The notes under the pieces were generated by a model. It worked only from the letters and a program-made list of their open reading frames with translations, did no database searches and was not told where the DNA came from. A DNA stretch of 64,000 nt from Burkholderiaceae bacterium. GTDB lineage: Bacteria > Pseudomonadota > Gammaproteobacteria > Burkholderiales > Burkholderiaceae_C. The stretch spans positions 417-64,416 of the forward strand of contig JBDHSJ010000001.1 in the NCBI GenBank assembly GCA_039808065.1, written 5' to 3'. Below, piece after piece: positions 14,617 through 36,990 of this stretch; positions within the stretch are counted from its first letter, which is position 1; each line of letters opens with the position of its first letter. A program made the translations under genes and the position numbers.

Positions 14617-16338
14617 TCAAGCCTTCCAGCTGGCGTGGGGCGCATGCGCGCGCAACCACTGCTCAGCCATCATCAGGATCCAGACCATCTCGCCGTAATA
14701 GCCAGGGTGTGCGGGCAGGTGGTGGGTCAGCAGGGTGTCGACAAAGTCGCCCCGCACGAAACCGCGACTTGCCAAGCTGCGCACCGATTCGCGTGCCAAT
14801 GCGCCCAAGCCCGCATGCTGGACCGCCCACACGCCAAAGGGCAGGCCGAAGCCGTGTTTGCTCTTGGTCAGGATCGCATCCGGCAAGAATCCGCGCAAAG
14901 CGTTCTTGAAGAACCAGCGCAGTTTGAGTCCGCGCAGTTTCAGCGCCGGGTGTAGGCGCAGCGAGAAGTCGAGCAGGTCGTCGCTGAGTAGCGGGAACCC
15001 CACCGATAGACCGGCCAGGCCCGCGCTTCCCACCACCTTGGGCAGATCGCTGTCAGCCAGCGTGAAACGCCAATCGAACGCCAACGTGCGATTGAGCTCG
15101 CCCGCATCCGTCACTTCGTTCCAGACGATTTCCTGTAGGCGTGCTGGACCTTGTGTGTCGATGCGGGCGAGGAAATCAGCGCTCAACACCTCCGTGACGC
15201 CCAGGCGCAGCAGGAGGTTGTACATATTGAGGCGCCCCGGCATGGGGACCCGTGCCTGCTCGACGTAGCTGGCGGCCTTGCGCGCACCGGGCAAACGTCC
15301 AAAGGGTGAGCCGAGCAGCAAGGGCTCAAGCAGCCCACTGCGCAGGAATCCGGGCACACCTTGGTACCAGCCGAACACCTTCTGCTTGGCATAGCGCGCG
15401 TTGCCCCCGAAGAGTTCGTCGCCACCGTCCCCAGCCAGCAGGCGGCTCACCCCATCCGCGCGGGCGCGGTGGGCGCAGATGAAGGCGGGCAGCACGGAGG
15501 AGTTGCCGAATGGCTGGTCGTAATGAGCTGCCACCGCAGGAATGTGAGCGAGTAGCTCGTCCGGTGTCACATAGTGCTCGTGGTGCTCGACACCGAACTG
15601 ACGCGCGGCAATGCGCGCGTACTCCATCTCGTCGTAACCCGCGGCTTCAAATCCGATCGAATACGCCTTCGGAGCAGCCTTGCTCATTCGGGCCAACATG
15701 CCGGCCACGGTGGAGCTGTCGGTGCCGCCACTCAGAAAGCAGGCGGGTGTGCTGCCGTCCAGCTCGGCCCGCACACCCTCCTCGATAAGGCTTAGGAAGC
15801 GCTCGCGCAGCTCCGGCAGTGAGCCTCGTTCATGCTCTTCGAAATGCGGCGTCCAGTACCGCTGCACCCGCAGCCCCTGATCAGCGCACCAGCTCAGGCA
15901 ATGGGCGGCGGGTAGGCGCCGCACCTCGGAAAACACGGTTTCGGGTGCCGGAATGGCGTGAAAGAACAGGTAGCTGAACAATGCCTGCGCGGAAAGCGCG
16001 GCGTCAGGCTGCACCAGCTCCGTTGCTTGGCTGGCAAATGTCACCCCCTGCGCGGTCTGTCGCCAGCACATCGGCAGGCTGCCAAAGCGGTCCACCGCCA
16101 GGCGCACCGAGCCATCGCTGCGGCGCAGGCCAACCGCAAAGCGGCCGCGCACCTGTGCCAGGGCGTCCAACTCTGCGCCACCAAGTGCCGCCCTCCAGGC
16201 TGCCTCGACCCCTTCGGTTTGGGCCAGCCTGGCCCAGGGACTGGCGCTGAAATCGGGGCGGCCGAAGCAGATCAGCTGGTTGGGTTCGGGTGTCATGGAG
16301 AGTGATGCGGCAACGGGGGGCGGAAGTATCCCGGACAC
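14617..16338 (-). CDS. Asparagine-synthase-related amide ligase lacking the Ntn Cys1 (start may be 16296)
   Basis: DRFG, LSGGTDSS, GDGGDELFGG and KHGFGLP synthetase motifs; no N-terminal MCG. Confidence 0.82.
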   Translation of the reverse strand: MSGILPPPVAASLSMTPEPNQLICFGRPDFSASPWARLAQTEGVEAAWRAALGGAELDALAQVRGRFAVGLRRSDGSVRLAVDRFGSLPMCWRQTAQGVTFASQATELVQPDAALSAQALFSYLFFHAIPAPETVFSEVRRLPAAHCLSWCADQGLRVQRYWTPHFEEHERGSLPELRERFLSLIEEGVRAELDGSTPACFLSGGTDSSTVAGMLARMSKAAPKAYSIGFEAAGYDEMEYARIAARQFGVEHHEHYVTPDELLAHIPAVAAHYDQPFGNSSVLPAFICAHRARADGVSRLLAGDGGDELFGGNARYAKQKVFGWYQGVPGFLRSGLLEPLLLGSPFGRLPGARKAASYVEQARVPMPGRLNMYNLLLRLGVTEVLSADFLARIDTQGPARLQEIVWNEVTDAGELNRTLAFDWRFTLADSDLPKVVGSAGLAGLSVGFPLLSDDLLDFSLRLHPALKLRGLKLRWFFKNALRGFLPDAILTKSKHGFGLPFGVWAVQHAGLGALARESVRSLASRGFVRGDFVDTLLTHHLPAHPGYYGEMVWILMMAEQWLRAHAPHASWKA

Positions 16339-17791: not shown

Positions 17792-20098
17792 TCAAGTTGA
17801 ATGCTTCTGCTTGTTGAACGCGGCAGCTGAACCTACCGGCCGACTGGACTCCAGGATTGTCCGGAATACGGCGGCGCACGCAGCTTCGTTGCGATCTGGC
17901 ATGGCACGTTCCATGCGCTCGCAGTACTGGGAGCTTGGGTGGAGCCCTTCGCAACCAAAGGCGTGGAGCGCAGTCAAGAGCTCTTCGGCATCGCGCGCCA
18001 CGGGGCCGAAGCCATGATCGTCATAGCTGAAATAACCGGGACGCCAGTTGTGGGCGCCGCCGTAAAACTCAGCACGGTCGGGCTGGTAGTAGAAGACGGA
18101 GCGCCGTAGCAGTGCGAACTCGAAGGCCACCGAGGTGTAGTCGGTGACCAGCCCACAGCATTGCACCAACAGCGGCTGAAATCGGTCTTGGCCGGCGCGG
18201 AACACCTCAAACTCGGAGGGCAGCTCAAGGGCATCAAGCACCGGAACCAGATTGGCGTGTGCCATGAACCCAAGCCGCACGCCTGTTTGTCGCGCCCAAT
18301 CCAGAAGACCCGGGTGCTTCAGCACCAGACGCCAGTTGTGAGCGAACTCCGAAGCCCGCACGAGACTCATGCGTTCCTCCTTGCTCAGATCTCCGCTGCG
18401 TTCGTCAAACAGGCTTGCGCGCCACGTGGGCATGAACAACAGCAGAGGTGGCTTGTTCACCTCACTGGGTTTCGCTGCCAGTGCCAGGAGTGCGTCCTGG
18501 CGAGGCAAGCCCAAACAGAAGGCGTCCTGCCGCATATAGCGGTACGGGCTGAAATCGCTCACGATGGATTCGAGTTCAGCCGGACTGGCCACGAAGAAGC
18601 TGGCGAATGGTTCGGCGTTCAGCCAGTTCGATGCGTCGTCCTTGTTGACGCCATGGCAAACGAAGTGGTAGCTGAACCGCATGCGCTCGCCGTGGACCTC
18701 CGGGGCCAGACTGAAATACTGCCCGGCATGCGAGGACACCAAGTGCTCGCAGTTCAGCGCCAGCAACCGCGCCGGCAGACCGGGGTGCACCAGACGAAAA
18801 CCCTCCGCCGCCAAGCGGCGTCCATCCGCCGAACCTGGATCCAGCACGAACCAGGCATTGATTTCAGGATGGTGTTTGCGCACCCAGCGATACAGGTGCT
18901 CGGCACTGTCGTCGGCATCTCCCTCGCGGTCAGTAAACAGCCAGGCCCGGCGATAGCGCCAGCTCATCAGCCTGGCCAGTCCGCGCAGCAGACGGGCTTT
19001 CAGGCCGGTCCGGTTCCAGCCCAAGGGGCGTTGACGGTCGGCCAGATTGCGATACAGCTCGGTTGGCAGCCTTGCCAAGTCAAGGGACGGTGCGGCGTCA
19101 AGCGCGTGCCTGCGGCTGAGTATTCGCAGCGAGGTGGCTTCGCCATTGCGGGCCAGGGTGAGCCGGCCTTGCGGTGGTAGGGCGAGCCAGACAATGCGCT
19201 GGTACAACTGGACCCGCTGGAACAATTTGCAGCTGCGGGTCTTGTGCGCGTGGGGCTCGATGCGGTGGCCATCCAGGCACCAGACTTCCTGCGATTCACT
19301 GGAGCGGATCCAATAGCTTAAGCGCAGCAGACCCCGGCGCAGGTTGCGCTCGTCGACCCAAACTGGACTGGGCGCTGGCCAGTCGGCGTAAGCCAGCAGT
19401 GCCTGGGCCGCTTCGTCATAAAGCTCGGTCAACTCGGCGTGACTTGCGGGGCCCAGGGCGCGGGCCAAATTGGCCAGGCGCTGGCGTAAGGGTTCCAACT
19501 GCTCGGGTCGTTGTGAAATCAGTGGCGTGCCGGGTTTGAGCTCGGTGCGGAGGTAGTGCAAGAGATGCTGGGAGATCGCCTGGCGCAGCCACTCGTGGGG
19601 CTGCGGCCCCCGCAGCAAGTTGAGCCAGCGGTCCAGCCGCAGGCTGTAGCTGTCATCGGCACGCCAATCAGGAGTGCCGGGCTGCCAGGCCGGCAGGCCC
19701 TTGAAGGGCCACCAGCAGTGGCTATGCCCCGCTTGCAGCAGCGCCCAGAGTCGACACTCAGCTTCATCTTGCGGCCTGAGTTGCGCCTCGCCGGCACTTT
19801 CAAACTCACGCAGCGCGGCAAGCTGGATGGCGCAGCAATCCCAGCGCGGGATGTCGGATTGCTCGCCGGGCGCGCAAGCCAGCACGATGTGCGGCAGGTC
19901 ACGTTGAGGACCGCGCCAATGGCGAAACCTCTCAAGCAGTGCATCAAGGGGGCCCGGAGCCTCAGGAGCGCGCTGAAACGCCACCCAGTCGGTCTGGACA
20001 GTTTCCAGCGCCTGCTGCAGGCTGCTGAATTGGCGAGCCGGGGCGCCAACGACCTGCACCGAGTCTGTGCCGAGTCGCAGCAATGTCAGCTCATTCAC
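17792..20098 (-). CDS. TagF-like CDP-glycerol/polyol glycerophosphotransferase with a long divergent N-terminal region
   Basis: ADDSAEHLY, LVSSH, FVCHGV, GLPRQD, FMPTWR and LVTDYTSVAFEF motifs of the TagF GT-B fold. Confidence 0.8.
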   Translation of the reverse strand: MNELTLLRLGTDSVQVVGAPARQFSSLQQALETVQTDWVAFQRAPEAPGPLDALLERFRHWRGPQRDLPHIVLACAPGEQSDIPRWDCCAIQLAALREFESAGEAQLRPQDEAECRLWALLQAGHSHCWWPFKGLPAWQPGTPDWRADDSYSLRLDRWLNLLRGPQPHEWLRQAISQHLLHYLRTELKPGTPLISQRPEQLEPLRQRLANLARALGPASHAELTELYDEAAQALLAYADWPAPSPVWVDERNLRRGLLRLSYWIRSSESQEVWCLDGHRIEPHAHKTRSCKLFQRVQLYQRIVWLALPPQGRLTLARNGEATSLRILSRRHALDAAPSLDLARLPTELYRNLADRQRPLGWNRTGLKARLLRGLARLMSWRYRRAWLFTDREGDADDSAEHLYRWVRKHHPEINAWFVLDPGSADGRRLAAEGFRLVHPGLPARLLALNCEHLVSSHAGQYFSLAPEVHGERMRFSYHFVCHGVNKDDASNWLNAEPFASFFVASPAELESIVSDFSPYRYMRQDAFCLGLPRQDALLALAAKPSEVNKPPLLLFMPTWRASLFDERSGDLSKEERMSLVRASEFAHNWRLVLKHPGLLDWARQTGVRLGFMAHANLVPVLDALELPSEFEVFRAGQDRFQPLLVQCCGLVTDYTSVAFEFALLRRSVFYYQPDRAEFYGGAHNWRPGYFSYDDHGFGPVARDAEELLTALHAFGCEGLHPSSQYCERMERAMPDRNEAACAAVFRTILESSRPVGSAAAFNKQKHST

Positions 20099-21591: not shown

Positions 21592-22553
21592 GCCTTTCCC
21601 CCGCCGATGCGGGAAAGCAGGGACTTGATACCCACCCACCAGGCCAGACGCTGCCACGGCCAGTGCTGCAGCGACAGCCGAGCCGAATGACGGGCCAAGT
21701 CCAGCTGACCCGCCAAGAGCTGCGCGCCGGCAAAGTCAGCCCAACTTCTGGCCAATGTGCGCTGGATTGCGCCGCCTGGCGCCCGGCGACCATCCGGGCC
21801 CTCAAGTCCCCAGCGCGCTAAGGCCCGTTCGATCACTTCGGCCTTGTAATTGCGCTTGGGCAGGGCGCGCGTCGTGCTCTGGGGGTGCAGGCGGTACAGC
21901 GCCAGCGGTTGCTGCACGCGCACGATCGGCGTCACGCGCGAGGCGCGCAGCCAGAGGTCGTAGTCCTCGCCCACCGGCACTCCGGGTTCGAAACCCCCCA
22001 ACTCCAACAGCAGGCGACGCTCGGCCAGCACCGTCGAAGTCCAGACGCAGCAGCCCTGCAGCAGGTCCGGATAGATCCACCCCGAGGGTCCGCAAGGGTG
22101 GGCCGTCGCCGCCGGCTCGCGCCGCACGGCCTCCAGCAGTTGCTGCGGTGGGGTTGGCTCCTGGCTCGCCCAAGTGTCCCAGCCGGCGTAGCACAGGCGA
22201 GCCAAGGGCTGCTGCTGCAGAAGCGCCCGCTGCGCACTCAGCTTGCCTGGCAGCCAAATGTCATCCGCATCGAGGAACGCAATCCACGCATGGCGGGCCT
22301 CTTGCACACCGCGGTTGCGTGCCACGGCAACGCCCTGATTGCTCTGTCGGATCAGGCAGACCTGCGGGTACGCGTGTTCAACAAAATCGGCCGAGCCATC
22401 GGCCGAGCCATCATCGACGACGATGATCTCCAATTGGGCATCCTGCTGGGCCAGCACGGAGTCCAGCGTCGCAGCGATGTAGCGTCTGGCGTTGAAGCAG
22501 GGAATGACGACCGTGATACCAGACGGGCTGGCGCGGGGACTGTCGGTCCTCAT
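21588..22553 (-). CDS. GT2 glycosyltransferase
   Basis: VVIPCFN, VDDGSADGS, FLDADD, GEDYDLWLR; ATG 22553 overlaps the upstream stop. Confidence 0.9.
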   Translation of the reverse strand: MRTDSPRASPSGITVVIPCFNARRYIAATLDSVLAQQDAQLEIIVVDDGSADGSADFVEHAYPQVCLIRQSNQGVAVARNRGVQEARHAWIAFLDADDIWLPGKLSAQRALLQQQPLARLCYAGWDTWASQEPTPPQQLLEAVRREPAATAHPCGPSGWIYPDLLQGCCVWTSTVLAERRLLLELGGFEPGVPVGEDYDLWLRASRVTPIVRVQQPLALYRLHPQSTTRALPKRNYKAEVIERALARWGLEGPDGRRAPGGAIQRTLARSWADFAGAQLLAGQLDLARHSARLSLQHWPWQRLAWWVGIKSLLSRIGGGKA

Positions 22554-23203
22554 TCGGTCGGGTCCCGCCAGTGGCCAGCGGCCTTCAGCCGCTCCTTCAG
22601 CTCGGTCTTCGGCCAACCCAAGGCCAGCGCCTGATGGGCATGTTGCAGCGCTTTATCAGCGGCACCCATTTCGAGATAGACGAGCCCGAGGTTGTAGTGA
22701 CTGATCGGGTTGTCCTTGGCGTGGCCAGCGGCGACGTCCAGTTGCCTCAGTGCCTCCGGCCTGCGCTGCTTGCGGTCCAGAAACTGCGCGTACAGCATGC
22801 GCGCAACCGTGTCGTCGGGGCGAAAGCGCACGGCACGGTCGAAGTAGCACTCCACAGTGCGTGAGGCGCCGGGCGGGGGATCACTCTTGTGCCGCTCAGC
22901 CAGGCGCGAAAAGGTGATGAGCGCGCGGTGATGGTTCGGGAACACATGCAGGGTGTACGCCACATCTTGGGCCATATTGCCCATGGTCGTGGTGCCCGGC
23001 TTGACCATCATTTCGATGCCTTGGGTGAAGTGCACCCTTTCGACCACAAGCCTGGTTTCGTTGGAGGCCGAGCGGTAGTCGTAGGGGCCGTAGTGATTGC
23101 GGAAGGGGTTGCCGCACGGGTGCTGAGTTGCATCGCCACTTTCCACCGCCATCACGGCGGTATTGAGCATGGTGAATGCGATCAGGAGCGTCCAGTGTTT
23201 CAT
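22550..23203 (-). CDS. Secreted protein with C-terminal TPR repeats
   Basis: Signal peptide MKHWTLLIAFTMLNTAVMA after an AAGGA SD; TPR-like SHYNLGLVYLEMG..ALQHAHQALALG. Confidence 0.72.
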   Translation of the reverse strand: MKHWTLLIAFTMLNTAVMAVESGDATQHPCGNPFRNHYGPYDYRSASNETRLVVERVHFTQGIEMMVKPGTTTMGNMAQDVAYTLHVFPNHHRALITFSRLAERHKSDPPPGASRTVECYFDRAVRFRPDDTVARMLYAQFLDRKQRRPEALRQLDVAAGHAKDNPISHYNLGLVYLEMGAADKALQHAHQALALGWPKTELKERLKAAGHWRDPTE

Positions 23204-23331
23204 GGGAATTCCTTGTTTGACTGAACGGTGCTTCAAATGGCGCTCACAGGTGGCAGGCATCATTGAAGCTGAACAAGAAAGTGCGGCTTCCGCGCTCAGA
23301 GAACTGGTAAGGGTGCACATCTGCCTTCCTG

Positions 23332-25293
23332 CTATTGGCCACGAGGAAGGAGCTTGGCTAGGCCGCGGCGTACGGTTGCGCTGAGCATTTGGAGTGACGC
23401 ACACCAAAACGGCTTGGGATCGCCGTGGCCGGCATAGCAAAAGTACTGATGCGCGCGGCGCGGTCGCAAGCTTCGGCTACGCCAAGCCAGCCCTAGGTAG
23501 GCGAGCGGTGCGCGTTCACTGTCATACCAAACGCAGGCCCGCAGCGGCTGACCAGCCTGCGGCCCGCTCCCAAGGGCCAACGCAAATTCTTGCAGCGGCT
23601 GATTGAAGCCGGCACCGATGCAAAGCCCTGCCCAGAAGTCAGTGCGCCCGAGTGTCGGCTCGATGACCCAGAAGCTGCCATCTGGTGCTTGTTTGAGTTC
23701 CAGCGATACGGGGCCAGAGAGACTGAGGCCGTCAAAGAAGCGCTCGGTTGCCACCAGCACCTCTGGTGCGTGCACCGTTTCAGCGATGATGGTTTGGCCG
23801 CGCGCTGGTGGATAAGAGGCGAGCTTGCGGCCGGTCAGGGATTGCACCACCCGGCCCTTGTCCAGGGTCAACGCACCGAAGTAGATGCATTCGTCGCCGC
23901 CTTCGATGTACTCCTGGCCGAGGATGGGAAGGTCCGCTTGGTAGCGGTCCAGCAAACGCTTCAGCTCAGCCGCGTCGCGTGCCATGTGGGTCTTGAACGA
24001 CGACAGGGGCCGCACCGGCTTGATGATCATTGGAAACCGGAAGCCTGAGGCGAGTCCGGCGTCGTCTGGACGGACAAAGACTTGGCTTCGCGGGTAGTTC
24101 AAACCTTGGGCCCGGCAGCGAGCTTCCAGTTGGTCTTTTCGCTGCAAGTGCAGCACCGTGGCAGCTTGCTCTGACCAGGCAATGCGGAAGGCGGGCTTGA
24201 GCTTCGCGTGCATGCTGGCCAGTGCCTCGACTTGACGGTCGTTGATGGCCAGCAGAACGACTTCGTCATGAGCGGCAAGCTTGGCCCGAATGCGTGGAAG
24301 TTCCTGCTCGAGGTGTGAGGCTTCGTAACTGTTGACCGGGAACCAGCCGCGCAAGTAGCGGCTCTGCAGGCCGGGGTTGTGCAGGTCCTTTTCTACCGCG
24401 TAAGTGGCCACGCCTGACTGGGCGAGCGCCCGGACCACGGCCAACCCGTGACTATCGACCCCAAGAACCAGCGCGGCAGGTGATCGTGGCGCAGGGTGAC
24501 GGTTCACTCGCTCAGTTTGCAGCGGTACAACCTCCGCCAGCAGGCCTGAGTCTCGAGGCTGCGCTTCTTGAGCAGGCGGCGCGAGTTCCATAGATGGTGC
24601 CCCTTGTTCGAATGGAGTCGTCAGGCGCAGCGCTGGCCGGCCGATCTGCCCAAGGGCCAGACTCGGCCGCCCCAAATGCCAGCCGAACTGAACCGGCCCG
24701 AGCCTAAGAAAGTAGGCAGACCCGATGCGCCGCGCGCCCATGCGGGTGTGGGCGGTGATTGAGCCGCGATTGAAGAGCGAGATGCGAGAAAGCGACCAGC
24801 GGAAGCCCTGCCGGGTTAAATCTTCATCGACGGCACGCCACATCCGAGCGAAAGTGCGCCCCAGCCTCCAACGCGGAGCCACATAGACATCGAAATCCCA
24901 AACGCTGTCAAAAGGGATCAAGTAATCGCAGGCCACCTCGTCCTCGGCATGGCGTACTGTGCTGATCCAGATGCACCCTGCGAATTCTTCTTTTACCGTG
25001 GTGACATAGCAGTGCGCTCCTTCACGCCAGCGCTCAGCCAGAACCTCGGGCGCGCGGGGCCAGGCCTGGCGAGCGATTTCTGCTGCCAAACTTTGGTGCG
25101 TCGTGGTATTCGGATCCGGTTTCACCACCGATAGCCCGCCGGTGCCCAGTGGCTGCGCGAACAGGCCGTAGGGAACCAGCGCAGCATGTCCACCACTCAA
25201 CCGTTGCAATGCCCGGTGCAGCAGCAGCAGTCCAGTAAGCATGGTTCCAAGTTCAAGCCGCACGCGATTCCAGCGTTCCAGCCAGGCCATCAT
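23332..25293 (-). CDS. GNAT-like acyltransferase fused to an ATP-grasp (carboxylate-amine / D-aspartate-ligase-like) domain
   Basis: N-terminus: DFDVYVAPRWRLG...NRGSITAHTRMG; C-terminus: GLAVVRALAQSG, FPMIIKP, QEYIEG, SLELK...VIEP. Confidence 0.72.
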   Translation of the reverse strand: MMAWLERWNRVRLELGTMLTGLLLLHRALQRLSGGHAALVPYGLFAQPLGTGGLSVVKPDPNTTTHQSLAAEIARQAWPRAPEVLAERWREGAHCYVTTVKEEFAGCIWISTVRHAEDEVACDYLIPFDSVWDFDVYVAPRWRLGRTFARMWRAVDEDLTRQGFRWSLSRISLFNRGSITAHTRMGARRIGSAYFLRLGPVQFGWHLGRPSLALGQIGRPALRLTTPFEQGAPSMELAPPAQEAQPRDSGLLAEVVPLQTERVNRHPAPRSPAALVLGVDSHGLAVVRALAQSGVATYAVEKDLHNPGLQSRYLRGWFPVNSYEASHLEQELPRIRAKLAAHDEVVLLAINDRQVEALASMHAKLKPAFRIAWSEQAATVLHLQRKDQLEARCRAQGLNYPRSQVFVRPDDAGLASGFRFPMIIKPVRPLSSFKTHMARDAAELKRLLDRYQADLPILGQEYIEGGDECIYFGALTLDKGRVVQSLTGRKLASYPPARGQTIIAETVHAPEVLVATERFFDGLSLSGPVSLELKQAPDGSFWVIEPTLGRTDFWAGLCIGAGFNQPLQEFALALGSGPQAGQPLRACVWYDSERAPLAYLGLAWRSRSLRPRRAHQYFCYAGHGDPKPFWCASLQMLSATVRRGLAKLLPRGQ

Positions 25294-26132
25294 TGCGGCG
25301 CCTCGTCGAAGCTCTGGCGCAGCCAGTCAATCAACCCGTCAAACGAGGCCTTTTGCTCATCCCTGAGCGAAAACGTGTGGTCGGCACCCGGATAGCGCTG
25401 GACGGTCAGGCGTGGGCGGTCGGCCCAGCCGCGCCACTCGGGAAAGACTTCACCTGCAGCTTCGAACTCGCGAGCCGTGTGGTCCCGGCCGCTCAATTGC
25501 AGCAGGATCGGGCCGGCAAAGCCCGCGTAGCCGCGGGCCATGCGAAGTTGGAACGCTTCGGCCTCAGTCGGGACAGCGTTCTGGCGTGCAGCTTTGCGGG
25601 TCTGCAGCCACTCCATGAGGGCTGCCAGGCCAACGCCTCCGCGCAGCAGCTTGGCCCAGAAGTCCCGGCTGCGCAGGCGATCGAGGTAATAGTGCTGCAC
25701 CCGTGCGCGGGCCTGGCCTTGCGCAGAGCGGACCCAGGGATTCAGGAGGGCTAACCCCTTCAGCATGGGGTCGCCACTTTGGGCGTACAGAAGGGCAGCG
25801 CTGGCACCGTCGCAAAGGCCCCAAAGCACGATCGCTTGAAGCTGGGGCTGGGCTCGGCGCAGGGCCTTGATGGCGATGTCAATGTCGGTGTCCAGCGCCC
25901 GGAAGTCCGGCAGCGGTCCAGGGCAGTCGCCCACTCCGTGGTGATCGAAGCGCAGGCAGGCGTAGCCAGCGTCAGCGAGGTGGCGGCCGAGTTGGACGAA
26001 GTGGCGATGCGAGCCCGCGCGGTACTGCGGGCCGCCAACGACCACCACCACGGCCACTTGGGCAGGGCGGTGGGGCAGGTCCAGCAGGCCAAAGGACGAG
26101 GCTCCAAACGTCAGCAGCTGGGGCCTGCTCAT
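25290..26132 (-). CDS. Alpha/beta hydrolase 1, exosortase A system-associated (TIGR03100-like)
   Basis: VGGPQYRAGSHR, LWGLCDGASA, LLNPWVR, GADHTFS; ATGA coupling at both ends. Confidence 0.88.
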   Translation of the reverse strand: MSRPQLLTFGASSFGLLDLPHRPAQVAVVVVVGGPQYRAGSHRHFVQLGRHLADAGYACLRFDHHGVGDCPGPLPDFRALDTDIDIAIKALRRAQPQLQAIVLWGLCDGASAALLYAQSGDPMLKGLALLNPWVRSAQGQARARVQHYYLDRLRSRDFWAKLLRGGVGLAALMEWLQTRKAARQNAVPTEAEAFQLRMARGYAGFAGPILLQLSGRDHTAREFEAAGEVFPEWRGWADRPRLTVQRYPGADHTFSLRDEQKASFDGLIDWLRQSFDEAPQ

Positions 26133-26941
26133 GCTGCAGCTCCTTGCGCAGGCCAGCGCTCGTTCAGCCAGCACAGACTGGCCTCGACCAGGGCCGGGCA
26201 GTCCTCAAGTTCCGTGGCATTCCAGGGAGCGGGGCTCTCCAGGGCCAAAGCCTTGATCGCTGGCGGCGCCTTCTGCTGTAGCCACTGCTGGCTGCCAGGC
26301 AGCAACTGGGGCGGCTGCTGGCTGCTGGCCTCCAGCCAGAGGGCAGGGTGCTCGGGGGGGTGCAGGGTTGCAGCCTCGATACCCGCGGCAAGCTCCGGCG
26401 CCAGCAAGTAGCCCGCCACCTCGACAGCATGGCCAGCGGCCAACTCTGCCTTCAGCGCGGCAACCGAAATGCGTTCAGCGCTGTCGAGCTCCGCCGCCAT
26501 GCGGAGGCGCAGAAATTGCTGCAACACGGCGCGACCCTGGGGGCTGGGTTGCCACCAAAGTTGGGCCTCGACATGGGGCGCGAGTGTTGATGCCAGAAGG
26601 CAGCCGGCCCGAACTCCCCAGGCCAGCCGCGGCACACCGCGGAACTCTTGATCCAGCAGTCCCACCCCTAGCTGCTCGAAGTCCTGCAGCCAAGCGGTCC
26701 AGCTGGCGTCGCTGAAATCGCCGGCGCTGTCGCCGCAGCCCAAGGGGTCGATCTGTAGCACCGCAAACCCCGCCTCCGCAAATGCGTGTGCGGCTTGGCA
26801 GAGCGCGCGGCGGGTCTTGTTCAGTTCCTCGGCAAAGGGCGGCAGCAGCAGCAGGGCGGCGCGCACCTTCTGGCTTGGGCGATAAAGCAGGGCGAAACGG
26901 TGCTGCCCGCCACGCTCCAGCAACAGAGGCTGAGCAGACAC
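26129..26941 (-). CDS. Alpha/beta hydrolase 2, exosortase A system-associated (TIGR03101-like)
   Basis: PPFAEELNKTRR, GCGDSAGDF, WGVRAG, WQP, VEVAGY. Confidence 0.88.
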   Translation of the reverse strand: MSAQPLLLERGGQHRFALLYRPSQKVRAALLLLPPFAEELNKTRRALCQAAHAFAEAGFAVLQIDPLGCGDSAGDFSDASWTAWLQDFEQLGVGLLDQEFRGVPRLAWGVRAGCLLASTLAPHVEAQLWWQPSPQGRAVLQQFLRLRMAAELDSAERISVAALKAELAAGHAVEVAGYLLAPELAAGIEAATLHPPEHPALWLEASSQQPPQLLPGSQQWLQQKAPPAIKALALESPAPWNATELEDCPALVEASLCWLNERWPAQGAAA

Positions 26942-26942
26942 G

Positions 26943-27197
26943 TCAACCCAGCTTGCTGCGTAGGAAATCCGTTAGCGAGCCCACCGTTGCGAACACATCG
27001 CCGCCAATTTCATCGTCGTCGATGCTGATGCCCAATTGCTCCTCCATGGCAGTGATGAGGGAGACCACTGCCATGGAGTCCAATTCAGGAACAGCCCCAA
27101 GCAGCGCGGTTTCACGCTGGAACGACTGAGCGCGGCCGGCCAGGCTCAAAACATCATCGAGAAGGCGCAGGACTTGGGCCTGAAGGTCAGCGGGCAT
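26943..27197 (-). CDS. Acyl carrier protein
   Basis: 84 aa, acidic, PELDSMAV phosphopantetheine-Ser motif, FATVGSL. Confidence 0.88.
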   Translation of the reverse strand: MPADLQAQVLRLLDDVLSLAGRAQSFQRETALLGAVPELDSMAVVSLITAMEEQLGISIDDDEIGGDVFATVGSLTDFLRSKLG

Positions 27198-27294
27198 GGT
27201 GCAATCAAAGGAGAGGACGGGTCGGCACGCCCTGGAATGGCGTGTCAAAGGCAGAGGCGAAATCTTACGTGTGCAAGCCCCCGCGCCCTCGGGG

Positions 27295-27309
27295 TGGCCC
27301 CCATCTTGC
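27295..27309 (+). promoter_or_regulatory. Possible sigma54 -24/-12 element upstream of the AMP-ligase
   Basis: TGGC-CCCCATC-TTGC (TGGC-N7-TTGC), 50 nt upstream of ATG 27359; a TACATT sigma70-like -10 also lies at about 27324. Confidence 0.3.
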
Positions 27310-27358
27310 GGGGGGCGCTGCGCTACATTGGCGACGCCCAGTCACCCCCTCGTTACCG

Positions 27359-28966
27359 ATGTCGACCCGCGAAGCTCACCTGCTGCATGACCTGATCGAA
27401 CGCAGCGCCGCGCGTACGCCCGAAAGCGCTGCGCTCGGCTACCGGGGGGTAGAGCTGAGTTACGCCGAGCTCTGGACCCAGGTCCAGGGCTTTGCCCATG
27501 CCTTGTTGGATCTCGGCCTGCAGCGTGGCGACCGGGTGGGCATTTACCTCGAAAAGCGTTTCGAGACGGTCGTGGCCAGCTTCGGCGCGCCCGCGGCGGG
27601 CGGCGTTTTCGTGCCCATGAACCCCTTGCTCAAGCCCGAGCAGGTTGGCTTCATTGCCCGCGATTGCGGTGTGCGGGTGCTGGTGACATCTGGCGATCGC
27701 TACCTCCAACTGCTGCCCGTGCTGGCCGAGTGCCCGGAGCTGCGCGCGGTGATCCTGACGGAAGGCGCCGCGGAGCAATCCGCCCAGCCCTGGGCCGTGC
27801 TGGACTGGACGCAAGCCTTGCAGTCCGGGGCGCGCAGGCCGCATCGTGTCGTGGACAGCGATGTGCTGTCCATCCTTTACACCAGCGGCAGCACCGGCCG
27901 GCCCAAGGGCGTGGTGCTGAGCCACCGCAATATGGTGGCCGGGGCCAAATCCGTGGCCAGCTACTTGGGCAACCACGCGGGCGACAGCTTGCTGGCAGCC
28001 TTGCCCCTTTCGTTCGATGCCGGCTTCAGCCAGCTCACCACCGCGTTCCACGCAGGCGCCCGCGTCGTGCTGCTGAACTACCTGCTGCCACGCGACGTGC
28101 TGCGGGCGCTGGAGAAGGAGCGCATCACCGGCCTGACCGCCGTGCCCCCGCTCTACATTCAGCTCACGCAGCTGGAGTGGCCGGCGGCAGTGAATGAGCA
28201 CCTGCGCTACTTCGCCAACACCGGCGGACGCATGCCGCGCGAGACCCTGCAGGCTCTGCGCCAGCGGGTTCCTGCCGCCAAGCCCTTCCTGATGTACGGC
28301 CTCACCGAGGCCTTCCGTTCCACCTACCTGCCGCCCGAGGAAGTCGATCGCCGTCCGGATTCGATCGGCAAGGCGATTCCGAACGCCGAGATCCTGGTGC
28401 TGCGCGAGGACGGCAGCGAGTGTGGTCCGGACGAGCCGGGCGAGCTGGTGCACCGAGGCGCGCTGGTGGGCATGGGCTACTGGGGTGACCCGGAAAAGAC
28501 CGCCGAGCGCTACAAGCTGCTGCCGCCCTCGACGGCGGCCCGGCTGTCCGGCCTCCAACTGCCGGAGTACGCGGTGTTCAGTGGCGACACCGTGCGCAAG
28601 GACGCCGACGGCTTTCTGTACTTCATCGGCCGGCGCGACGAGATGATCAAGACCAGCGGCTACCGCGTCAGCCCTACCGAGGTGGAGGAGGTGCTGTACG
28701 CGACCCAGCTGGTGGGCGAATGCGCGGCCTTTGGCGTGGATCACCCGCAGCTGGGCCAGGCCATCTACGTGATCGCCACGCCGCCGGCGGGGCAGGAGCA
28801 CATCGACCAGGCGGCCTTGCTGGCGCAATGCCGCCAGCAGATGCCGGCCTACATGGTGCCCGCCACCATCGAGGAGCGCGCCGGCCCGCTGCCACGCAAT
28901 CCGAACGGCAAGATTGACCGGAGCAGCCTGGCCAAGGCCCTCCACGAGCCCAAGGGCAACGCATGA
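27359..28966 (+). CDS. Acyl-CoA ligase-like AMP-forming enzyme, exosortase A-associated (TIGR03098-like)
   Basis: YTSGSTGRPKG, YGLTEAFRS, SGD, GRRDEMIKTSGYRVSPTEVE, PRNPNGKIDR. Confidence 0.9.
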   Translation: MSTREAHLLHDLIERSAARTPESAALGYRGVELSYAELWTQVQGFAHALLDLGLQRGDRVGIYLEKRFETVVASFGAPAAGGVFVPMNPLLKPEQVGFIARDCGVRVLVTSGDRYLQLLPVLAECPELRAVILTEGAAEQSAQPWAVLDWTQALQSGARRPHRVVDSDVLSILYTSGSTGRPKGVVLSHRNMVAGAKSVASYLGNHAGDSLLAALPLSFDAGFSQLTTAFHAGARVVLLNYLLPRDVLRALEKERITGLTAVPPLYIQLTQLEWPAAVNEHLRYFANTGGRMPRETLQALRQRVPAAKPFLMYGLTEAFRSTYLPPEEVDRRPDSIGKAIPNAEILVLREDGSECGPDEPGELVHRGALVGMGYWGDPEKTAERYKLLPPSTAARLSGLQLPEYAVFSGDTVRKDADGFLYFIGRRDEMIKTSGYRVSPTEVEEVLYATQLVGECAAFGVDHPQLGQAIYVIATPPAGQEHIDQAALLAQCRQQMPAYMVPATIEERAGPLPRNPNGKIDRSSLAKALHEPKGNA

Positions 28967-30192
28967 GCCAGATTCCCCAGCATGTGGCGATGGACCAGTT
29001 CGCCAGCGCCGGCAGCGAGCTGCTGATCAATGGGCAACCGCTGAGCCGCATTGCCGCGCGCGTCGGCAGCACGCCCTTTTATGCCGTGGATCGCAGCCTG
29101 CTGGACCGGCGCGTGGCCGAGCTGCGTGCCGTCCTGCCGCAGGGCCTGAAGCTGCACTACGCGATGAAGGCCAACCCCATGCCGGCCCTGGTGGCCCATA
29201 TGGCGCGTCTGGTGGATGGCATTGACGTGGCCTCGGCCGGTGAGCTGAAGGTGGCGCTGGATGCTGGCGCCGACCCGCATGAGATCAGCTTTGCCGGGCC
29301 TGGCAAGCGCGATCCCGAGCTGCTGCAGGCCGTGGCCGCAGGCGTGCTGGTGAACGTGGAATCGGCGCGCGAACTGGCCGTGCTGCAGCGCGCCGCCGAG
29401 CAACTCGGTCTGCCGGCGCGCGTGGCCCTGCGCGTCAACCCGGATTTCGAGCTCAAGGGCTCGGGCATGAAGATGGGCGGCGGGCCCAAGCAGTTCGGCG
29501 TGGACGTGGAGCAGGTGCCGGCGGTGCTCGACGAGATGCGCGCGCGCGGCCTGCAGTTTGAAGGCTTCCATCTGTTCGCCGGCTCGCAGAACCTGAAGCC
29601 GGAATCGATCTGCGAGGCACAGCAGAAGAGCTATGAGCTGGCGCTGCGCCTGGCGGCGCAGACGCCGCAGCCGATCCGCTTCCTGAACCTGGGCGGTGGC
29701 TTTGGCATTCCCTACTTCCCCGGCGAGCAACGCCTGGATCTGGCGCCGATCGGGGCGAATCTGGCGGCGCTGCAGGAGCGAGCGCACCGCGAGCTGCCCG
29801 AAGCCGAGCTGGTCATTGAACTGGGCCGCTACCTGGTGGGCGAGGCCGGTGTCTATGTCACCCGGGTGGTGGACAAGAAGATTTCTCGCGGTCAGACCTA
29901 TCTGGTCTGTGACGGCGGCCTGAACCATCATCTGAGCGTCTCCGGCAATTTCGGCCAGGTGATCCGCAAGAACTACCCGGTCACGATCGGGAACCGCCAA
30001 GGGGCCCCGAGCGAGGCGGTGTCGGCCGTCGGACCGCTGTGCACCCCGCTGGATCTGCTGGCCGACAAAATGGCCCTGCCGCAGGCCGAGATCGGTGACC
30101 TGGTGGTGATTTTTCAGAGTGGGGCCTATGGCGCCAGCGCCAGCCCGGCGGCCTTTCTCGGTCACCCCGCGGTGACCGAGGTGCTCGTCTAG
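28963..30192 (+). CDS. PLP-dependent group IV decarboxylase, exosortase A-associated (TIGR03099-like; LysA/BtrK fold)
   Basis: YAMKANP (PLP Lys), DVASAGE, HLFAGSQ, NLGGGFG, ELGRY, GPLCTPLD, GAYG. Confidence 0.9.
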   Translation: MSQIPQHVAMDQFASAGSELLINGQPLSRIAARVGSTPFYAVDRSLLDRRVAELRAVLPQGLKLHYAMKANPMPALVAHMARLVDGIDVASAGELKVALDAGADPHEISFAGPGKRDPELLQAVAAGVLVNVESARELAVLQRAAEQLGLPARVALRVNPDFELKGSGMKMGGGPKQFGVDVEQVPAVLDEMRARGLQFEGFHLFAGSQNLKPESICEAQQKSYELALRLAAQTPQPIRFLNLGGGFGIPYFPGEQRLDLAPIGANLAALQERAHRELPEAELVIELGRYLVGEAGVYVTRVVDKKISRGQTYLVCDGGLNHHLSVSGNFGQVIRKNYPVTIGNRQGAPSEAVSAVGPLCTPLDLLADKMALPQAEIGDLVVIFQSGAYGASASPAAFLGHPAVTEVLV

Positions 30193-31984
30193 GGGGCCGC
30201 GCGCAGCGCCGCTTCGCTCAGCCCCTCCGGCTGATGGAAGTGATACCCCTGCGCGTACTGCACCCCCAGATCGCGCAGCGCAGCGGCAATCCGGGCCGAC
30301 TCGACAAACTCCGCCACCACCGGCAGACCCAGCGCCTGCGCCATCTGCACCATGGAGCGCACCATCGTGGCGTTGGCCTCGTCATGGTCCATGTCGCGCA
30401 CGAAGGCGCCATCCAGCTTCAGGCTGTCGAAGGGCAGGCGTTTCAGGTACGCGAAGCTGGCAAAGCCGGTGCCGAAGTCGTCGAGCGAGAAGCGCAGGCC
30501 GGCAGCCTTGAGACGGTGCATGAAGGTCTGCGCCACCTCCAGGTTGACGATGGCCTCGGTCTCGGTGATCTCGAAGCAGAGCTTGCTGGGGGCGCAAGGA
30601 TGATCGGCCAGCAGGCCGAGGATGAAGTCGGCCAGGCCGGCATCACGCAGGGAATAGGCCGAGAGGTTGATGCTGACCAGTTCGATGCGCTGCAAGAGTT
30701 CGGCGGGCAGCGCGGCCAGTTGGCCGAGTACAGCCCGCAGCATCCAGCGGTCCACTTGATCGATGATCTGGTAGCGCTCGGCCGGGCCGATGAAGACGGC
30801 CGGGCTGATGACGCGCTGCTGCTCCGGGTCCCACAGCCGGATCAGGGTCTCGAAGCGCAAACCCGTGGGCAGTTCGTCTTGCAGCGGCACGATGCGCTGG
30901 AAGAAGACGCGGAAGTGATCGGACTTGAGCGCGTCCAACAGGCGGTAGGCCCAGTTGACGGACTCGCGCGGGTCCGCTTCGCGAGGGGAGGGCTGGTGCA
31001 GGCGCACGCCGGGGCCACCTTCCCGGCGCGCCAGGTAGCTGGCTTCGTCGGCCTTGGCCATCACCTGCTCGAACGAGTAGTACTCGGTACCAATCGGCAC
31101 CACTGCCACGCGCGCGTCCACCGAATAGGGGCGGCCGTCCCAATAGAACACAAACCCTTCGAAGGCGCGCTTGATCCGTTGGCCCAGGGCCAGCACGGTG
31201 TCGGTGCTGCGCGAGCAAATGATGGCGAAGCGGTCGCCGCCCAGCCGGGAGATGAAGTCGTCACTGGCAGCCAGCGCGGCCAGCAGATCGGCCACCTGAC
31301 GCAGCAATTCATCGCCGGCGATGTAGCCGCAGGCGTCATTGACGATGGAGAAGCGTGCCAACTCGACCAGCACGATGCAGGCGCTGTCGTCGACCCGGCT
31401 GGCCTGGCCCAGCAGGCCCTGCACATGGGTCTCGAGCGCGTCGCGGTTGTAGAGCCGGGTGACGAAGTCGTGTGTGGCCAGGTAGGAGAGCCGGTCCTGC
31501 ATGAAGCGGCGCTCGTTGATCTCTTCGCGCAGCTGGCGGTTGGCCTGCACCAGCTCCTGGGTGCGCTCGCGCACGCGGGCTTCGAGCTGGGCATTCAGCT
31601 GCTGTAGATCACGCAGCAGGCGGCGCTTCTCCAGATGGTGGTGCACGCGGGCGCGCACTTCGTCGGCGCGCACCGGCTTGGCGATGTAGTCCACGCCGCC
31701 GGCGGCAAAGCCCTGGCTGGTGTCCTCGGCGCGGGCGGTGACGAAGATCACCGGCAGGTCCTGGCCGCCCGGAAGGGTGCGCAGGCGGCGGCAGGTTTCA
31801 AAGCCGTCTATGCCCGGCATCATCACGTCCAGCAGCACCAGGTCCGGCTGCGTGCGCGGCACCAGCTCCAACGCGCGCTCGCCGCTGTTGGCGGCCAGGA
31901 TGTCGAGTTCGGCACCGGCCAGGATGGACACCAGCAGGTCGATGTTCTCCGGCGTGTCATCAACGATCAGCAGCTTGGCTTTGC

Positions 31985-31988
<4 letters not shown>
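30189..31988 (-). CDS. Response regulator REC-GGDEF(degenerate)-EAL, probable c-di-GMP phosphodiesterase
   Basis: IVDD..LLDVMMPG..YIAKP receiver; RLGGDRF; FETLIRL, FEITETE, LDDFGTG, LKLDG, VAEFVE, QGY. Confidence 0.88.
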
Positions 31989-35878
<3,890 letters not shown>

Positions 35879-35979
35879 GAGCGATGCTAGACGAGGGGTT
35901 GTTGCCCCTTCGATTGGAGTGCATCCTCCAAGGCCCTTAAGGGCTTGCCCTAGGCGGCCCTGGCAGGGGGGCTCGTCCT

Positions 35980-35985
35980 TAGAAT
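35980..35985 (+). promoter_or_regulatory. Putative sigma70 -10 element for the nucleoside operon
   Basis: TAGAAT followed by GC-rich GGCGCCC, 27 nt before ATG 36013. Confidence 0.5.
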
Positions 35986-36012
35986 GGCGCCCTTTTGTAT
36001 ACAGTTTTCGCC

Positions 36013-36990
36013 ATGGCTCTCTCGATGCGTCCCCTGTTCGCCGTGCTCGCCCTGTTGGTTTCGGGCAGCACCCTGGCCGCACCGGCCGTCATCTTTGACA
36101 TGGGCGGCAAGTTCGACAAGAGCTTCAACGAGTCCGGCTACCGCGGGGTCGAGAAGTGGAAGGCCGAGACTGGCAAGAACTATCTCGAGTTCGAGATCAG
36201 CAATGAGACCCAGCGCGTGCAGGCCCTGCGCCGCATGGCCGAGCGCGGCGCCTCGCCCATCATCTCGATCGGCTTCGCCCAGGCCTCGGCGCTGGAGCAG
36301 GTGGCCAAAGAGTTCCCCAAGATCCAGTTCGCCATCATTGACGGCGTGGTCAACCTGCCCAATGTGGCCTCGATCACCTTCAAGGAGCATGAGGGCAGCT
36401 ACCTGGTGGGCGTGGCCGCGGCGCTGAAGAGCAAGAGCGGCAAGGTGGGCTTCGTGGGCGGCATGGACATTCCGCTGATCCGCAAGTTCCAGTGCGGCTA
36501 CGAGCAGGGTGTGAAGGCCACCAACCCGAAGGCCGAGGTGCTGGCCAACATGACGGGCACCACCGCCACCGCCTGGAATGACCCCACGCGTGGCGCCGAG
36601 CTGGCCAAAGCCCAGTTCGCCAAAGGCGTGGACGTGGTCTTTGCGGCCGCCGGCGGCACCGGCACGGGTGTTTACCAGGCGGCCAAGGACGCCGGCAAGT
36701 TGGCGATCGGCGTGGACAGCAATCAAAACCACCTGCAGCCCGGCACCATGCTGACCTCGATGGTCAAGCGCGTCGACGTGGCCGTCTACAACGTGTTGAA
36801 GGACTTCAAACCCGGCGTGCGCGCCCTGGGCCTGAAGGAAGAGGGTGTGGCCCCGGCCATGGACGAGCACAACGCCAAGCTGGTGGACGCCGCGCTCAAG
36901 GCCAAGCTGGACGCCGCGCGTGCCGACATCGTGGCCGGCAAGATCAAGGTCAATGACGCCATGGCCGACCCGGCCGCCTGCAAGAAGTAA
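36013..36990 (+). CDS. BMP-family nucleoside ABC transporter substrate-binding protein
   Basis: Signal peptide, GGKFDKSFNE, FKEHEGSYL, AIGVDSNQ, LTSMVKRVD. Confidence 0.9.
   Translation: MALSMRPLFAVLALLVSGSTLAAPAVIFDMGGKFDKSFNESGYRGVEKWKAETGKNYLEFEISNETQRVQALRRMAERGASPIISIGFAQASALEQVAKEFPKIQFAIIDGVVNLPNVASITFKEHEGSYLVGVAAALKSKSGKVGFVGGMDIPLIRKFQCGYEQGVKATNPKAEVLANMTGTTATAWNDPTRGAELAKAQFAKGVDVVFAAAGGTGTGVYQAAKDAGKLAIGVDSNQNHLQPGTMLTSMVKRVDVAVYNVLKDFKPGVRALGLKEEGVAPAMDEHNAKLVDAALKAKLDAARADIVAGKIKVNDAMADPAACKK

Follow-up and report, generated by a model that had tools for sequence, protein, structure and literature searches.

A candidate thiotemplated amino-acid tailoring cassette in an exosortase A exopolysaccharide locus

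Exosortase A (XrtA) loci occur widely among environmental bacteria that form flocs and biofilms. Four protein families that mark these loci, TIGR03098 through TIGR03101, have borne only 'associated' names, and the question is what their members do together. We addressed it in a 64,000-nt stretch of DNA from a Burkholderiaceae bacterium (hereafter the window), where six genes at 23332-30192 lie in an XrtA glycan locus. Two of them, on the plus strand, encode an adenylating ligase and a decarboxylase; the other four, on the minus strand, encode a carrier protein, two proteins of the alpha/beta-hydrolase fold and a GNAT-ATP-grasp fusion. We conclude, with a probability of about 60%, that the locus holds a thiotemplated amino-acid tailoring cassette, in which beta-alanyl- or gamma-aminobutyryl (GABA) thioesters would be made on the acyl/peptidyl carrier protein (ACP) and off-loaded by a cysteine enzyme, probably onto a glycan. 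The evidence gives the four families a concrete, testable pathway.

The ligase gene (27359-28966, plus strand; the longest open reading frame (ORF) starts at 27242, with the likely start MSTREA at 27359) encodes a stand-alone adenylation enzyme. It matched the TIGR03098 model, which is named 'acyl-CoA ligase', with 772.7 bits against a curated cut-off of 592.35. The protein has the A3 motif YTSGSTGRPKG, the A10 lysine, and an A4 motif, FDAGFSQ, of the amino-acid type known from nonribosomal peptide synthetases (NRPS). Over its whole length, the best match in the PDB was the LgrA adenylation (A) domain with 269 bits, followed by VinN (3wvn) with 208.6 bits; HitB, IdnL1, CmiS6 and SlgN1 also ranked high, and acyl-CoA synthetases reached 156.7 bits at most. 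When a core of 165 amino acids around the substrate pocket was used, VinN was the only PDB match at E <= 1e-8 (2.8e-18).

According to passages of PMC11253843, D230 of VinN holds the substrate amine, and a beta13-beta14 loop that is one residue short, together with K330/R331 and the bulky F231 and S299 on the opposite side, causes 3-methylaspartate to be bound as a beta-amino acid. The pocket core of the window ligase aligned with that of VinN free of gaps from the A4 Asp through the beta13-beta14 loop, and the loop has the same length. VinN D230, F231, S299, K330 and R331 were paired with Asp, Ala, Thr, Phe and Arg, respectively (the VinN chain numbering in the alignment is offset by 16). The ligase thus has the Asp, the shortened loop and the basic residue equivalent to R331, and the bulky residues across from the loop are Ala and Thr instead in the clade of the window. 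With Ala, Thr and Phe in place of F231, S299 and K330, its substrate may differ from that of VinN. An assignment of the Arg to GrsA position 330, made from GrsA motifs, was dropped because the VinN alignment pairs this residue with R331. This residue-level match of the ligase with VinN is new here.

Of 85 aligned ligases, 84 retain the loop MYGLTEAFRST with its Arg, and the remaining one is a mis-hit of 26% identity in locus L021. Two types of pocket were seen among them. The Ala/Thr type was found in 67 sequences, including those of the window and of locus L089; a Tyr (once Phe) with Ser or Thr, closer to VinN, was found in 17 sequences, all from distant loci. We read these residues as suggesting that all of the aligned ligases activate the side-chain carboxyl of an acidic amino acid. 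As a speculation, the two pocket types may correspond to different chain lengths of the substrate, for example Glu versus Asp.

The decarboxylase gene (28963-30192, plus strand) encodes a pyridoxal phosphate (PLP)-dependent enzyme of fold type III. It scored 629.4 bits with TIGR03099 (curated cut-off 478.45) and also matched PF02784 and PF00278. The initial annotation had proposed a comparison with BtrK and LysA, and the PDB sequence search favoured BtrK. The best matches were two BtrK entries, 7ru7 (265.7 bits, E 8.9e-78) and 2j66 (264.2 bits), which are annotated as L-glutamyl-[BtrI acyl-carrier protein] decarboxylase, and the best LysA (2p3e, 164.9 bits) was 100 bits behind. The PLP lysine (YAMKAN) and the GGGFG and SGAYG motifs were seen in the alignments. 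The protein has CTPLD and DGGLNHHLSVSGNFGQ, that is, the BtrK-like CTPxD and DGGxxHH...G at the places where LysA has CE(S/T)GD and DAGMNDLIRPxxY in the printed alignments. The BtrK-like signature was present in all 20 distant homologues, which like the window gene are without RPxxY, an element that we take to contact the distal end of diaminopimelate (DAP) in LysA. The LysA of the same genome has RPAMY and CESGD. It is encoded by a true lysA gene on another contig, which scored 382.8 bits with the lysA model; the TIGR03099 decarboxylase scored about 254-255 bits, under the cut-off of 297.9. Because of its BtrK-like motifs, the absence of RPxxY and the separate true lysA, the decarboxylase is not a lysine-pathway enzyme, and its identification as the housekeeping LysA was rejected. 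It lies beside genes for a stand-alone carrier and a loading enzyme, as a carrier-dependent decarboxylase would. We regard it as a candidate of the BtrK/VinO/FlvO/CtaF type, acting on a carrier-bound amino acid.

These comparisons bear on the possibility that the two genes do what their names say. In that case, the ligase would be a fatty-acyl-CoA or fatty-acyl-ACP ligase for a lipid or acyl modification, and the decarboxylase would act on free DAP, ornithine or lysine and yield a polyamine or lysine. Two fatty-acyl-CoA synthetase subfamily models in NCBIfam did score the ligase at 291.5 and 290.3 bits, and the LysA model gave the decarboxylase 254 bits. Such functions are hard to reconcile with the amino-acid A4 Asp and the VinN-type loop with Arg, with the ranking of the NRPS A domain and VinN over acyl-CoA synthetases in the PDB, or with a decarboxylase that lacks RPxxY and is 100 bits nearer to BtrK in a genome that has its own lysA. 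Moreover, the ligase gene shares 4 bp with that of the decarboxylase, and the two are still neighbours in distant taxa. We consider the face-value functions very improbable.

The carrier is a stand-alone ACP of 84 amino acids (26943-27197, minus strand), with the Ser in PELDSMAVV. Its longest ORF reaches 27248, and the likely start is MPADLQ. It matched PF00550 with E 3.4e-5, and at least 95% of 63 aligned sequences share D40-S41-M42. The best PDB match (E 2e-17) was 2lki, deposited as an uncharacterised protein, which is presumably a holo-ACP of Nitrosomonas europaea. In NCBIfam, the best match was AsbD, the carrier protein of petrobactin. One phosphopantetheinyl transferase gene was found in the genome, which is 89% complete.

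Decarboxylation of an amino acid on a carrier has precedents. VinN/VinL/VinO provide one, according to parts of PMC11284099. BtrK, CtaF and FlvO decarboxylate Glu or Asp that is tethered to a carrier via its side-chain carboxyl, in the BtrJ/I/K, CtaD/E/F and FlvN/L/O sets (passages of PMC11350588), and CtaF was inactive on free Asp (excerpts of PMC7183216). In the window, a first step would be the activation of the side-chain carboxyl of L-Asp or L-Glu by the TIGR03098 enzyme, of the VinN/FlvN type, and its thioesterification to the phosphopantetheine of the ACP. In a second step, the TIGR03099 enzyme would strip the free alpha-carboxyl on the carrier, giving beta-alanyl- or gamma-aminobutyryl-S-ACP. 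We consider loading and on-carrier decarboxylation, as judged from homology and pocket residues, highly probable.

How close is this to known systems? The initial annotation had invoked a butirosin-like logic. Loading and BtrK-like decarboxylation found support in the BtrK match and the VinN-like pocket; a loader of the BtrJ type did not, and the Vin/Flv modules turned out to be nearer. As in butirosin biosynthesis, where the product goes to a sugar, the decarboxylase is one whose best solved relative is BtrK, and in this strain an ATP-grasp gene adjoins the cassette. However, the conserved loader here is an adenylating enzyme and not an ATP-grasp ligase like BtrJ, and the ATP-grasp protein is a variable accessory. 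A BtrH-type transferase, BtrG and BtrO/V were not seen among the window ORFs scanned. The adenylating A-domain loader makes the Vin/Flv module the closest precedent. Vicenistatin and fluvirucin biosynthesis (VinN/L/O and FlvN/L/O), as far as the sources cited above describe it, likewise has a loader of the A-domain type and an ACP, both of them stand-alone, and a fold-type III PLP decarboxylase that takes the acidic amino acid on the carrier; VinO and FlvO were likened to the window decarboxylase by description and not by sequence. The window differs in that the genes lie in an exopolysaccharide (EPS) locus instead of beside a polyketide synthase (PKS), that counterparts of VinM, VinK and VinJ were not found in it, and that an alpha/beta hydrolase with a Cys-His-Asp triad, together with a paralog that has none, would do the off-loading.

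Closthioamide biosynthesis (CtaD/E/F) shares the thiotemplated loading of Asp and its on-carrier decarboxylation to beta-alanine, and its ATP-grasp enzyme re-extends the free amine, a precedent for the accessory ATP-grasp protein here, in the portion of the work that we cite. It differs in its product, a free thioamide antibiotic, and in that CtaD does the extending as well as the loading, with neither an A-domain loader nor an alpha/beta-hydrolase pair. The window cassette thus belongs to none of the butirosin, Vin/Flv and closthioamide clusters, having no PKS, no BtrH/G/O/V and no VinK/M/J.

A surface polymer is decorated through a carrier protein also in the D-alanylation of teichoic acids (Dlt), where DltA and DltC form the carrier-protein route and DltB and DltD carry out the transfer. 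There, too, a small carrier receives from an adenylating enzyme an amino acid that is destined for a surface glycopolymer. DltA was a weaker PDB match of the window ligase (127 bits), as was DltC of the ACP (E 0.11). In contrast to the window cassette, Dlt has no decarboxylation, and homologues of DltB and DltD were not seen in the window.

The initial annotation had noted that the XrtA-associated families are catalogued without a worked-out chemistry, and this agrees with the literature: we found no paper with such chemistry, and none that links exosortase or XrtA to ACP, ligase or decarboxylase chemistry. In look-ups of terms, supplements aside, the cassette genes were not mentioned in Haft 2006, in the Curvibacter, Dechloromonas, Acidovorax and Aquincola papers or in the epsSMASH preprint; in a B. 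cenocepacia paper, TIGR03100 appears as an annotation only. On-carrier decarboxylation of Asp or Glu has so far been known from antibiotic pathways. If the proposed pathway is true, antibiotic-type thiotemplated amino-acid chemistry enters the decoration of matrix polysaccharides, and a substituent that bears an amine would change how the matrix is charged, how it is cross-linked and how proteins attach to it.

The cassette is conserved and real. We compared 80 related loci, all betaproteobacterial, with decarboxylases 71-97% identical to that of the window; the nearest is L001, whose record bears the name Inhella proteolytica. At least 6 kb upstream of the decarboxylase was available in 57 of them. 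The ACP, hydrolase 1 (hydr1), hydrolase 2 (hydr2) and ligase genes were all present in 46 of these 57 loci, and in 45 of the 46 they had the order and orientation of the window, so the arrangement is not due to chance. In 53 of 65 loci, fewer than 200 bp lay between the ligase and decarboxylase genes.

In the window itself, the ORF coordinates and strands bore out the divergent, tightly coupled operons that had been described for the six genes. There are three overlaps of 4 bp: the decarboxylase ATG with the ligase stop, the hydr1 ATG with the hydr2 stop, and the ATG of the GNAT-ATP-grasp gene (25293) with the hydr1 stop. The gap between the ACP stop and the hydr2 start is 1 nt. By these coordinates, the ACP and ligase operons are separated by a divergent intergenic region of 161 bp (27198-27358). 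A promoter scan of 22400-30400, divergent spacer included, found no sigma-70-like promoter, and terminator-like sites there were at chance level only. The GC content of the window is high (63-70%).

Among 20 more distant loci, 8 had a decarboxylase over the TIGR03099 cut-off and 12 had one under it. A ligase homologue was present in 18 of the 20, and the same 18 had the ACP. The hydr1 and hydr2 genes were found in 6 of the 8 loci over the cut-off and in none of the 12 under it. This pattern suggests that the triad of ACP, ligase and decarboxylase, which would make the donor, is an autonomous core, and that hydr1 and hydr2 form a module peculiar to XrtA-type loci. That the cassette divides into a donor and an off-loading module is new here.

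The off-loading step would fall to this second module. The initial annotation had spoken of a pair of hydrolase-fold proteins; both genes are present, and one encodes a Cys-His-Asp enzyme and the other a paralog without a triad, probably its binding partner. The hydr1 gene (25290-26132, minus strand; the longest ORF reaches 26174, with the likely start MSRPQ at 26132) encodes an alpha/beta hydrolase that scored 284.3 bits with TIGR03100 (curated cut-off 168.45). Its triad, Cys107-Asp217-His252 in the numbering from MSRPQ, is invariant, with Cys in place of Ser. The Cys was in the nucleophile elbow (G-L/N-C-D-G/A) in all 48 close and all 6 distant homologues. In the AlphaFold model (pLDDT 86.3), it lies between strand 100-106 and helix 108-119, the Asp follows strand 209-214 and the His follows strand 242-247, which are the canonical places. 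Such a Cys nucleophile suits the taking over of a thioester-bound acyl group, which the enzyme may then transfer or hydrolyse; hydr1 is a candidate thioester-accepting acyl transferase or thioesterase.

The hydr2 gene (26129-26941, minus strand) encodes a TIGR03101-like paralog of hydr1 (hhalign probability 97.5%). Three of the window genes are over the cut-offs of the TIGR03098-TIGR03101 families, which NCBIfam names by association only, and hydr2, with 199.4 bits against a TIGR03101 cut-off of 202.75, is 3.3 bits below. Its position between ACP and hydr1 and invariant residues common to 50 orthologues argue for membership. Its Arg111 aligned with the hydr1 Cys, and Arg was at this position in all 51 close and all 6 distant homologues. 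There was no invariant His, so no catalytic triad was recognized; E39, N41, R44, W240 and E244 were conserved. A HMMER alignment to MHETase placed an Ala at the nucleophile position, which we rejected because ortholog conservation and hhalign favour Arg111. In either alignment, the position holds neither Ser nor Cys. hydr2 is therefore a candidate non-catalytic or substrate-binding partner.

A complex of hydr1 and hydr2 was predicted with ipSAE values of 0.90, 0.91 and 0.90, and the best of three controls gave 0.00. The mark that we apply to this score is reached by 116 of 157 solved complexes and by 2 of 215 mismatched pairs, a calibration that holds roughly here, where our own alignments were used. 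The runs had at least 96% of contacts in common, with a partner pLDDT of at least 90. The predicted interface involves residues 34-43, 66-71 and 251-260 of hydr1, in the conserved loops that follow strand 3 and surround the His, and residues 37-52, 68-76, 174-179 and 242-245 of hydr2. An interface built from conserved loops near the hydr1 His and their hydr2 counterparts suggests that the active-site mouths face each other. In a distant XrtA genome, G219, hydr2 (49-295) and hydr1 (355-616) are found in one open frame of 620 amino acids (L090:6584-8443, plus strand). The predicted heterodimer of a Cys-His-Asp enzyme and an Arg paralog, with a natural fusion in one genome, is new here.

In a third step, this heterodimer would take the acyl group onto Cys107 of hydr1 by transthioesterification and hand it to an acceptor. 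hydr2, which has an Arg in the place of the nucleophile and conserved Glu, Asn, Arg and Trp at the interface, would bind the carrier or the acceptor. No signal peptides were found on the cassette proteins, so off-loading would be cytoplasmic. The likeliest acceptor would be a hydroxyl or amine of a sugar in a lipid-linked or nucleotide-activated EPS repeat unit, before flipping by Wzx. Such a pair, a Cys enzyme with a pseudo-enzyme, would off-load acyl groups from a carrier in a new way.

Instead, hydr1 and hydr2 could act as a thioesterase that releases a free small molecule, such as beta-alanine or GABA, an oligo-amide, a polyamine- or siderophore-like compound, or a signal. A Foldseek search with the hydr1 model returned generic esterases and lipases only, with no relative specific to transferases, and this fold fits hydrolytic release as well as transfer. 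The match of the ACP with AsbD points the same way, and closthioamide CtaD/E/F builds a free oligo-beta-alanine product (in the sections concerned of PMC7183216). On the other hand, a Cys nucleophile with an obligate partner would be unusual in a simple thioesterase. The comparison of strains also bears on the choice between release and transfer.

Between the window and L001, protein identity is 95-97% for the ligase, the decarboxylase and the downstream regulator, and falls to 80% for the ACP, 59% for hydr2 and 51% for hydr1. To the right of about 27.6 kb, nucleotide identity is 88-97%, against 62-74% across ACP, hydr2 and part of hydr1; left of 25618, there was no blastn match. We conclude that the position near 27.6 kb, which falls on the divergent promoter and the ligase gene's 5' end, is a recombination boundary, also new here. 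The drop in identity places the off-loading genes in a strain-variable glycan zone and the donor genes in a conserved zone. Co-variation of the off-loading genes with glycan genes is expected if hydr1 and hydr2 recognise a variable acceptor.

Where other loci have insertions within the cassette, most of the inserted genes are of a sugar-modifying kind: 4 loci have UDP-glucose dehydrogenase, 2 have a FemAB-like GNAT, 2 (L018 and L077) have an AsnB-like gene, and 1 has an O-acyltransferase with a SASA esterase. Such sugar-pathway insertions, the co-variation of ACP, hydr2 and hydr1 with strain-variable glycan genes, and the location of the cassette in EPS loci, with XrtA in 13 of 15 decarboxylase genomes, all speak for a glycan target and against a free product. 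We thus regard release of a free small molecule as unlikely, and tailoring of a glycan as the better account of the cassette. The identity of the acceptor as a glycan, taken by itself, is a tentative assignment that we put slightly below even odds.

In individual loci, UDP-glucose/GDP-mannose dehydrogenase genes were seen between ligase and decarboxylase (L043:2608-3963, L044:4055-5410 and L046:8498-9934) and between hydr2 and ACP (L038:6580-7902). A 2-oxoacid dehydrogenase pair, a fused alpha/beta E1 and an E2-like protein, was seen between hydr2 and ACP in two loci of the Rhodocyclales type (L073:4769-7881 and L074:5906-7999).

The link to XrtA itself was analyzed in 301 genomes of the phylum, which are related to one another, so the counts show association and are not statistics. 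A decarboxylase over the TIGR03099 cut-off was found in 15 genomes, XrtA over its own cut-off in 17, and both in 13. hydr1 and hydr2 were found only in XrtA-positive genomes, among those examined. Genome G245 had a generic exosortase and no hydr1.

This association would be accounted for if the omega-aminoacyl product served as the primary-amine acceptor for exosortase A, which would join PEP-CTERM proteins to a polysaccharide or lipid. The product would carry a free primary amine, hydr1 and hydr2 follow XrtA, and the co-occurrence is strong, although incomplete in both directions (13 of 15 and 13 of 17). In its furthest form, a free amine put on a lipid-linked glycan would resolve the exosortase A acyl-enzyme and covalently join PEP-CTERM proteins to the exopolysaccharide, and hydr1 (Cys) and hydr2 (Arg) would be a new type of composite-site acyltransferase that reads the carrier and a strain-specific glycan. 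However, the cassette proteins appear to be cytoplasmic, whereas the site of exosortase action would be the membrane or periplasmic face, some XrtA genomes are without the decarboxylase, and one complete genome has the triad without an exosortase. We rate the role as an exosortase acceptor as a long shot, and its extension to a composite-site enzyme as equally far-fetched.

Several observations weigh against the glycan-tailoring cassette that we propose, in addition to the fatty-acyl-CoA synthetase matches of the ligase, the plain esterases and lipases as nearest folds of hydr1 and the hydr2 score under its cut-off. The substrate could be Asp, Glu or another acidic amino acid, since the VinN residues F231 and S299 are replaced here. 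The score of the modelled hydr1-hydr2 complex may lean on dimer geometries common among alpha/beta hydrolases. No acceptor-specific transferase of the BtrH or VinK type was seen among the window ORFs scanned. XrtA was found without a decarboxylase over the cut-off in 4 of 17 genomes. In the opposite direction, the complete genome G168 has the ACP-ligase-decarboxylase triad with no exosortase and no hydr1 over the cut-off. Triads without hydr1 and hydr2 or, in G168, without any exosortase imply that the link to XrtA is not obligatory, and triads outside XrtA contexts are also what release of a free molecule would lead one to expect. We found no published biochemistry on any member of the cassette.

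The sixth gene (23332-25293, minus strand) encodes a protein of 653 amino acids, in which a GNAT-like half is fused to an ATP-grasp half. The model (pLDDT 87.7, pTM 0.73) has two domains, about 1-229 and about 270-653, joined by a disordered linker (230-269). The C-terminal half is an ATP-grasp domain, with Foldseek matches to biotin carboxylase, the L-amino-acid ligases RizA, BL00235 and YwfE, PylC and PurK at E 2.6e-15 to 1e-13 and TM values, by target, of 0.5-0.74. By sequence, the PDB matches of the protein were weak (best E 0.0036), and a profile search added D-Ala-D-Ala ligase at 8.3e-7. The matches of the GNAT half were also weak: PF00583 at E 0.031, under the cut-off, and the PDB at E 0.04. 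A stand-alone homologue of this half in L054 matched PF00583 at 1.1e-5, and in clusters of look-alikes in the Atlas PF00583 was found in 23-79% of members.

The initial annotation had included this fusion in the pathway. The ATP-grasp half is clear by fold and the GNAT half less so, and the protein is not a conserved member of the cassette but a strain-variable accessory, with homologues in 10 of the 80 related loci. Nine of these had the N-terminal half alone and one the C-terminal half alone, placed between ligase and decarboxylase; the nearest relative had none. The public proteins included about 25 fusions of full length, many ATP-grasp forms that stand alone, and proteins in which ATP-grasp is joined to a FemAB-like GNAT. 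In the 301 genomes, a homologue was found in 9, and in 7 of these 9 (the genome of the window counted) it lay within a decarboxylase or exosortase locus. BtrJ and CtaD are ATP-grasp precedents that acylate a carrier-bound omega-amine, according to passages of PMC7183216. By analogy, in this strain only, a fourth step may follow in which the ATP-grasp half would extend or protect the free omega-amine with another carboxylate and the GNAT half would N-acylate it.

The next gene on the same strand (22550-23203, minus strand) encodes a small secreted TPR protein, as judged from its translation and TPR Pfam matches, with the likely start MKHWTLL and a signal peptide. In 24 of the 46 complete loci, a TPR gene lay on the strand of hydr1 and no more than 1.5 kb downstream of it; in the window, the inserted GNAT-ATP-grasp gene parts the two. 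Whether this protein belongs to the pathway is uncertain.

The setting in an exosortase A glycan locus, as first annotated, was confirmed by the genes upstream of the six. XrtA-EpsI is encoded at 1046-2530, and with it are three XrtA-system glycosyltransferases (TIGR03087, TIGR03088 and TIGR04063), the XrtA amidotransferase, a TIGR03097 ligase-like protein and two nucleotide-sugar dehydrogenases. Between this set and the cassette lie genes for an AsnB-like protein without the Cys, a glycerophosphotransferase-like protein, a Wzx flippase and a family 2 glycosyltransferase. No window ORF matched a regular expression for PEP-CTERM tails, a crude pattern that is no proof of their absence. Beyond about 36 kb, the genes are housekeeping ones.

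A second adenylating enzyme, PaaK/DVU_1553-like (E 2.2e-41), is encoded at 10728-12083 (plus strand), and the 3' end of its gene overlaps the start of the gene for the TIGR03097 O-antigen-ligase-like protein. The AsnB-like protein (14617-16338, minus strand) has the N-terminus MTPEPNQ... without the Cys2 nucleophile, and its match to the XrtA amidotransferase model begins only at position 100. A candidate role is that of an amide ligase using an amine other than glutamine-derived ammonia. The decarboxylase gene is met at its 3' end by converging genes (30189-36082, minus strand) for a response regulator with GGDEF and EAL domains and for a MASE1-CHASE-PAS hybrid histidine kinase, with 97% protein identity in the nearest relative. 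Within the EPS locus, a protein of 768 amino acids with a CDP-glycerol glycerophosphotransferase domain is encoded at 17792-20098 (minus strand) and a polysaccharide deacetylase at 13170-14378 (plus strand). Given these two genes, glycerol phosphate and free amino sugars may be present on the polymer, and the amino sugars could be N-acyl acceptors.

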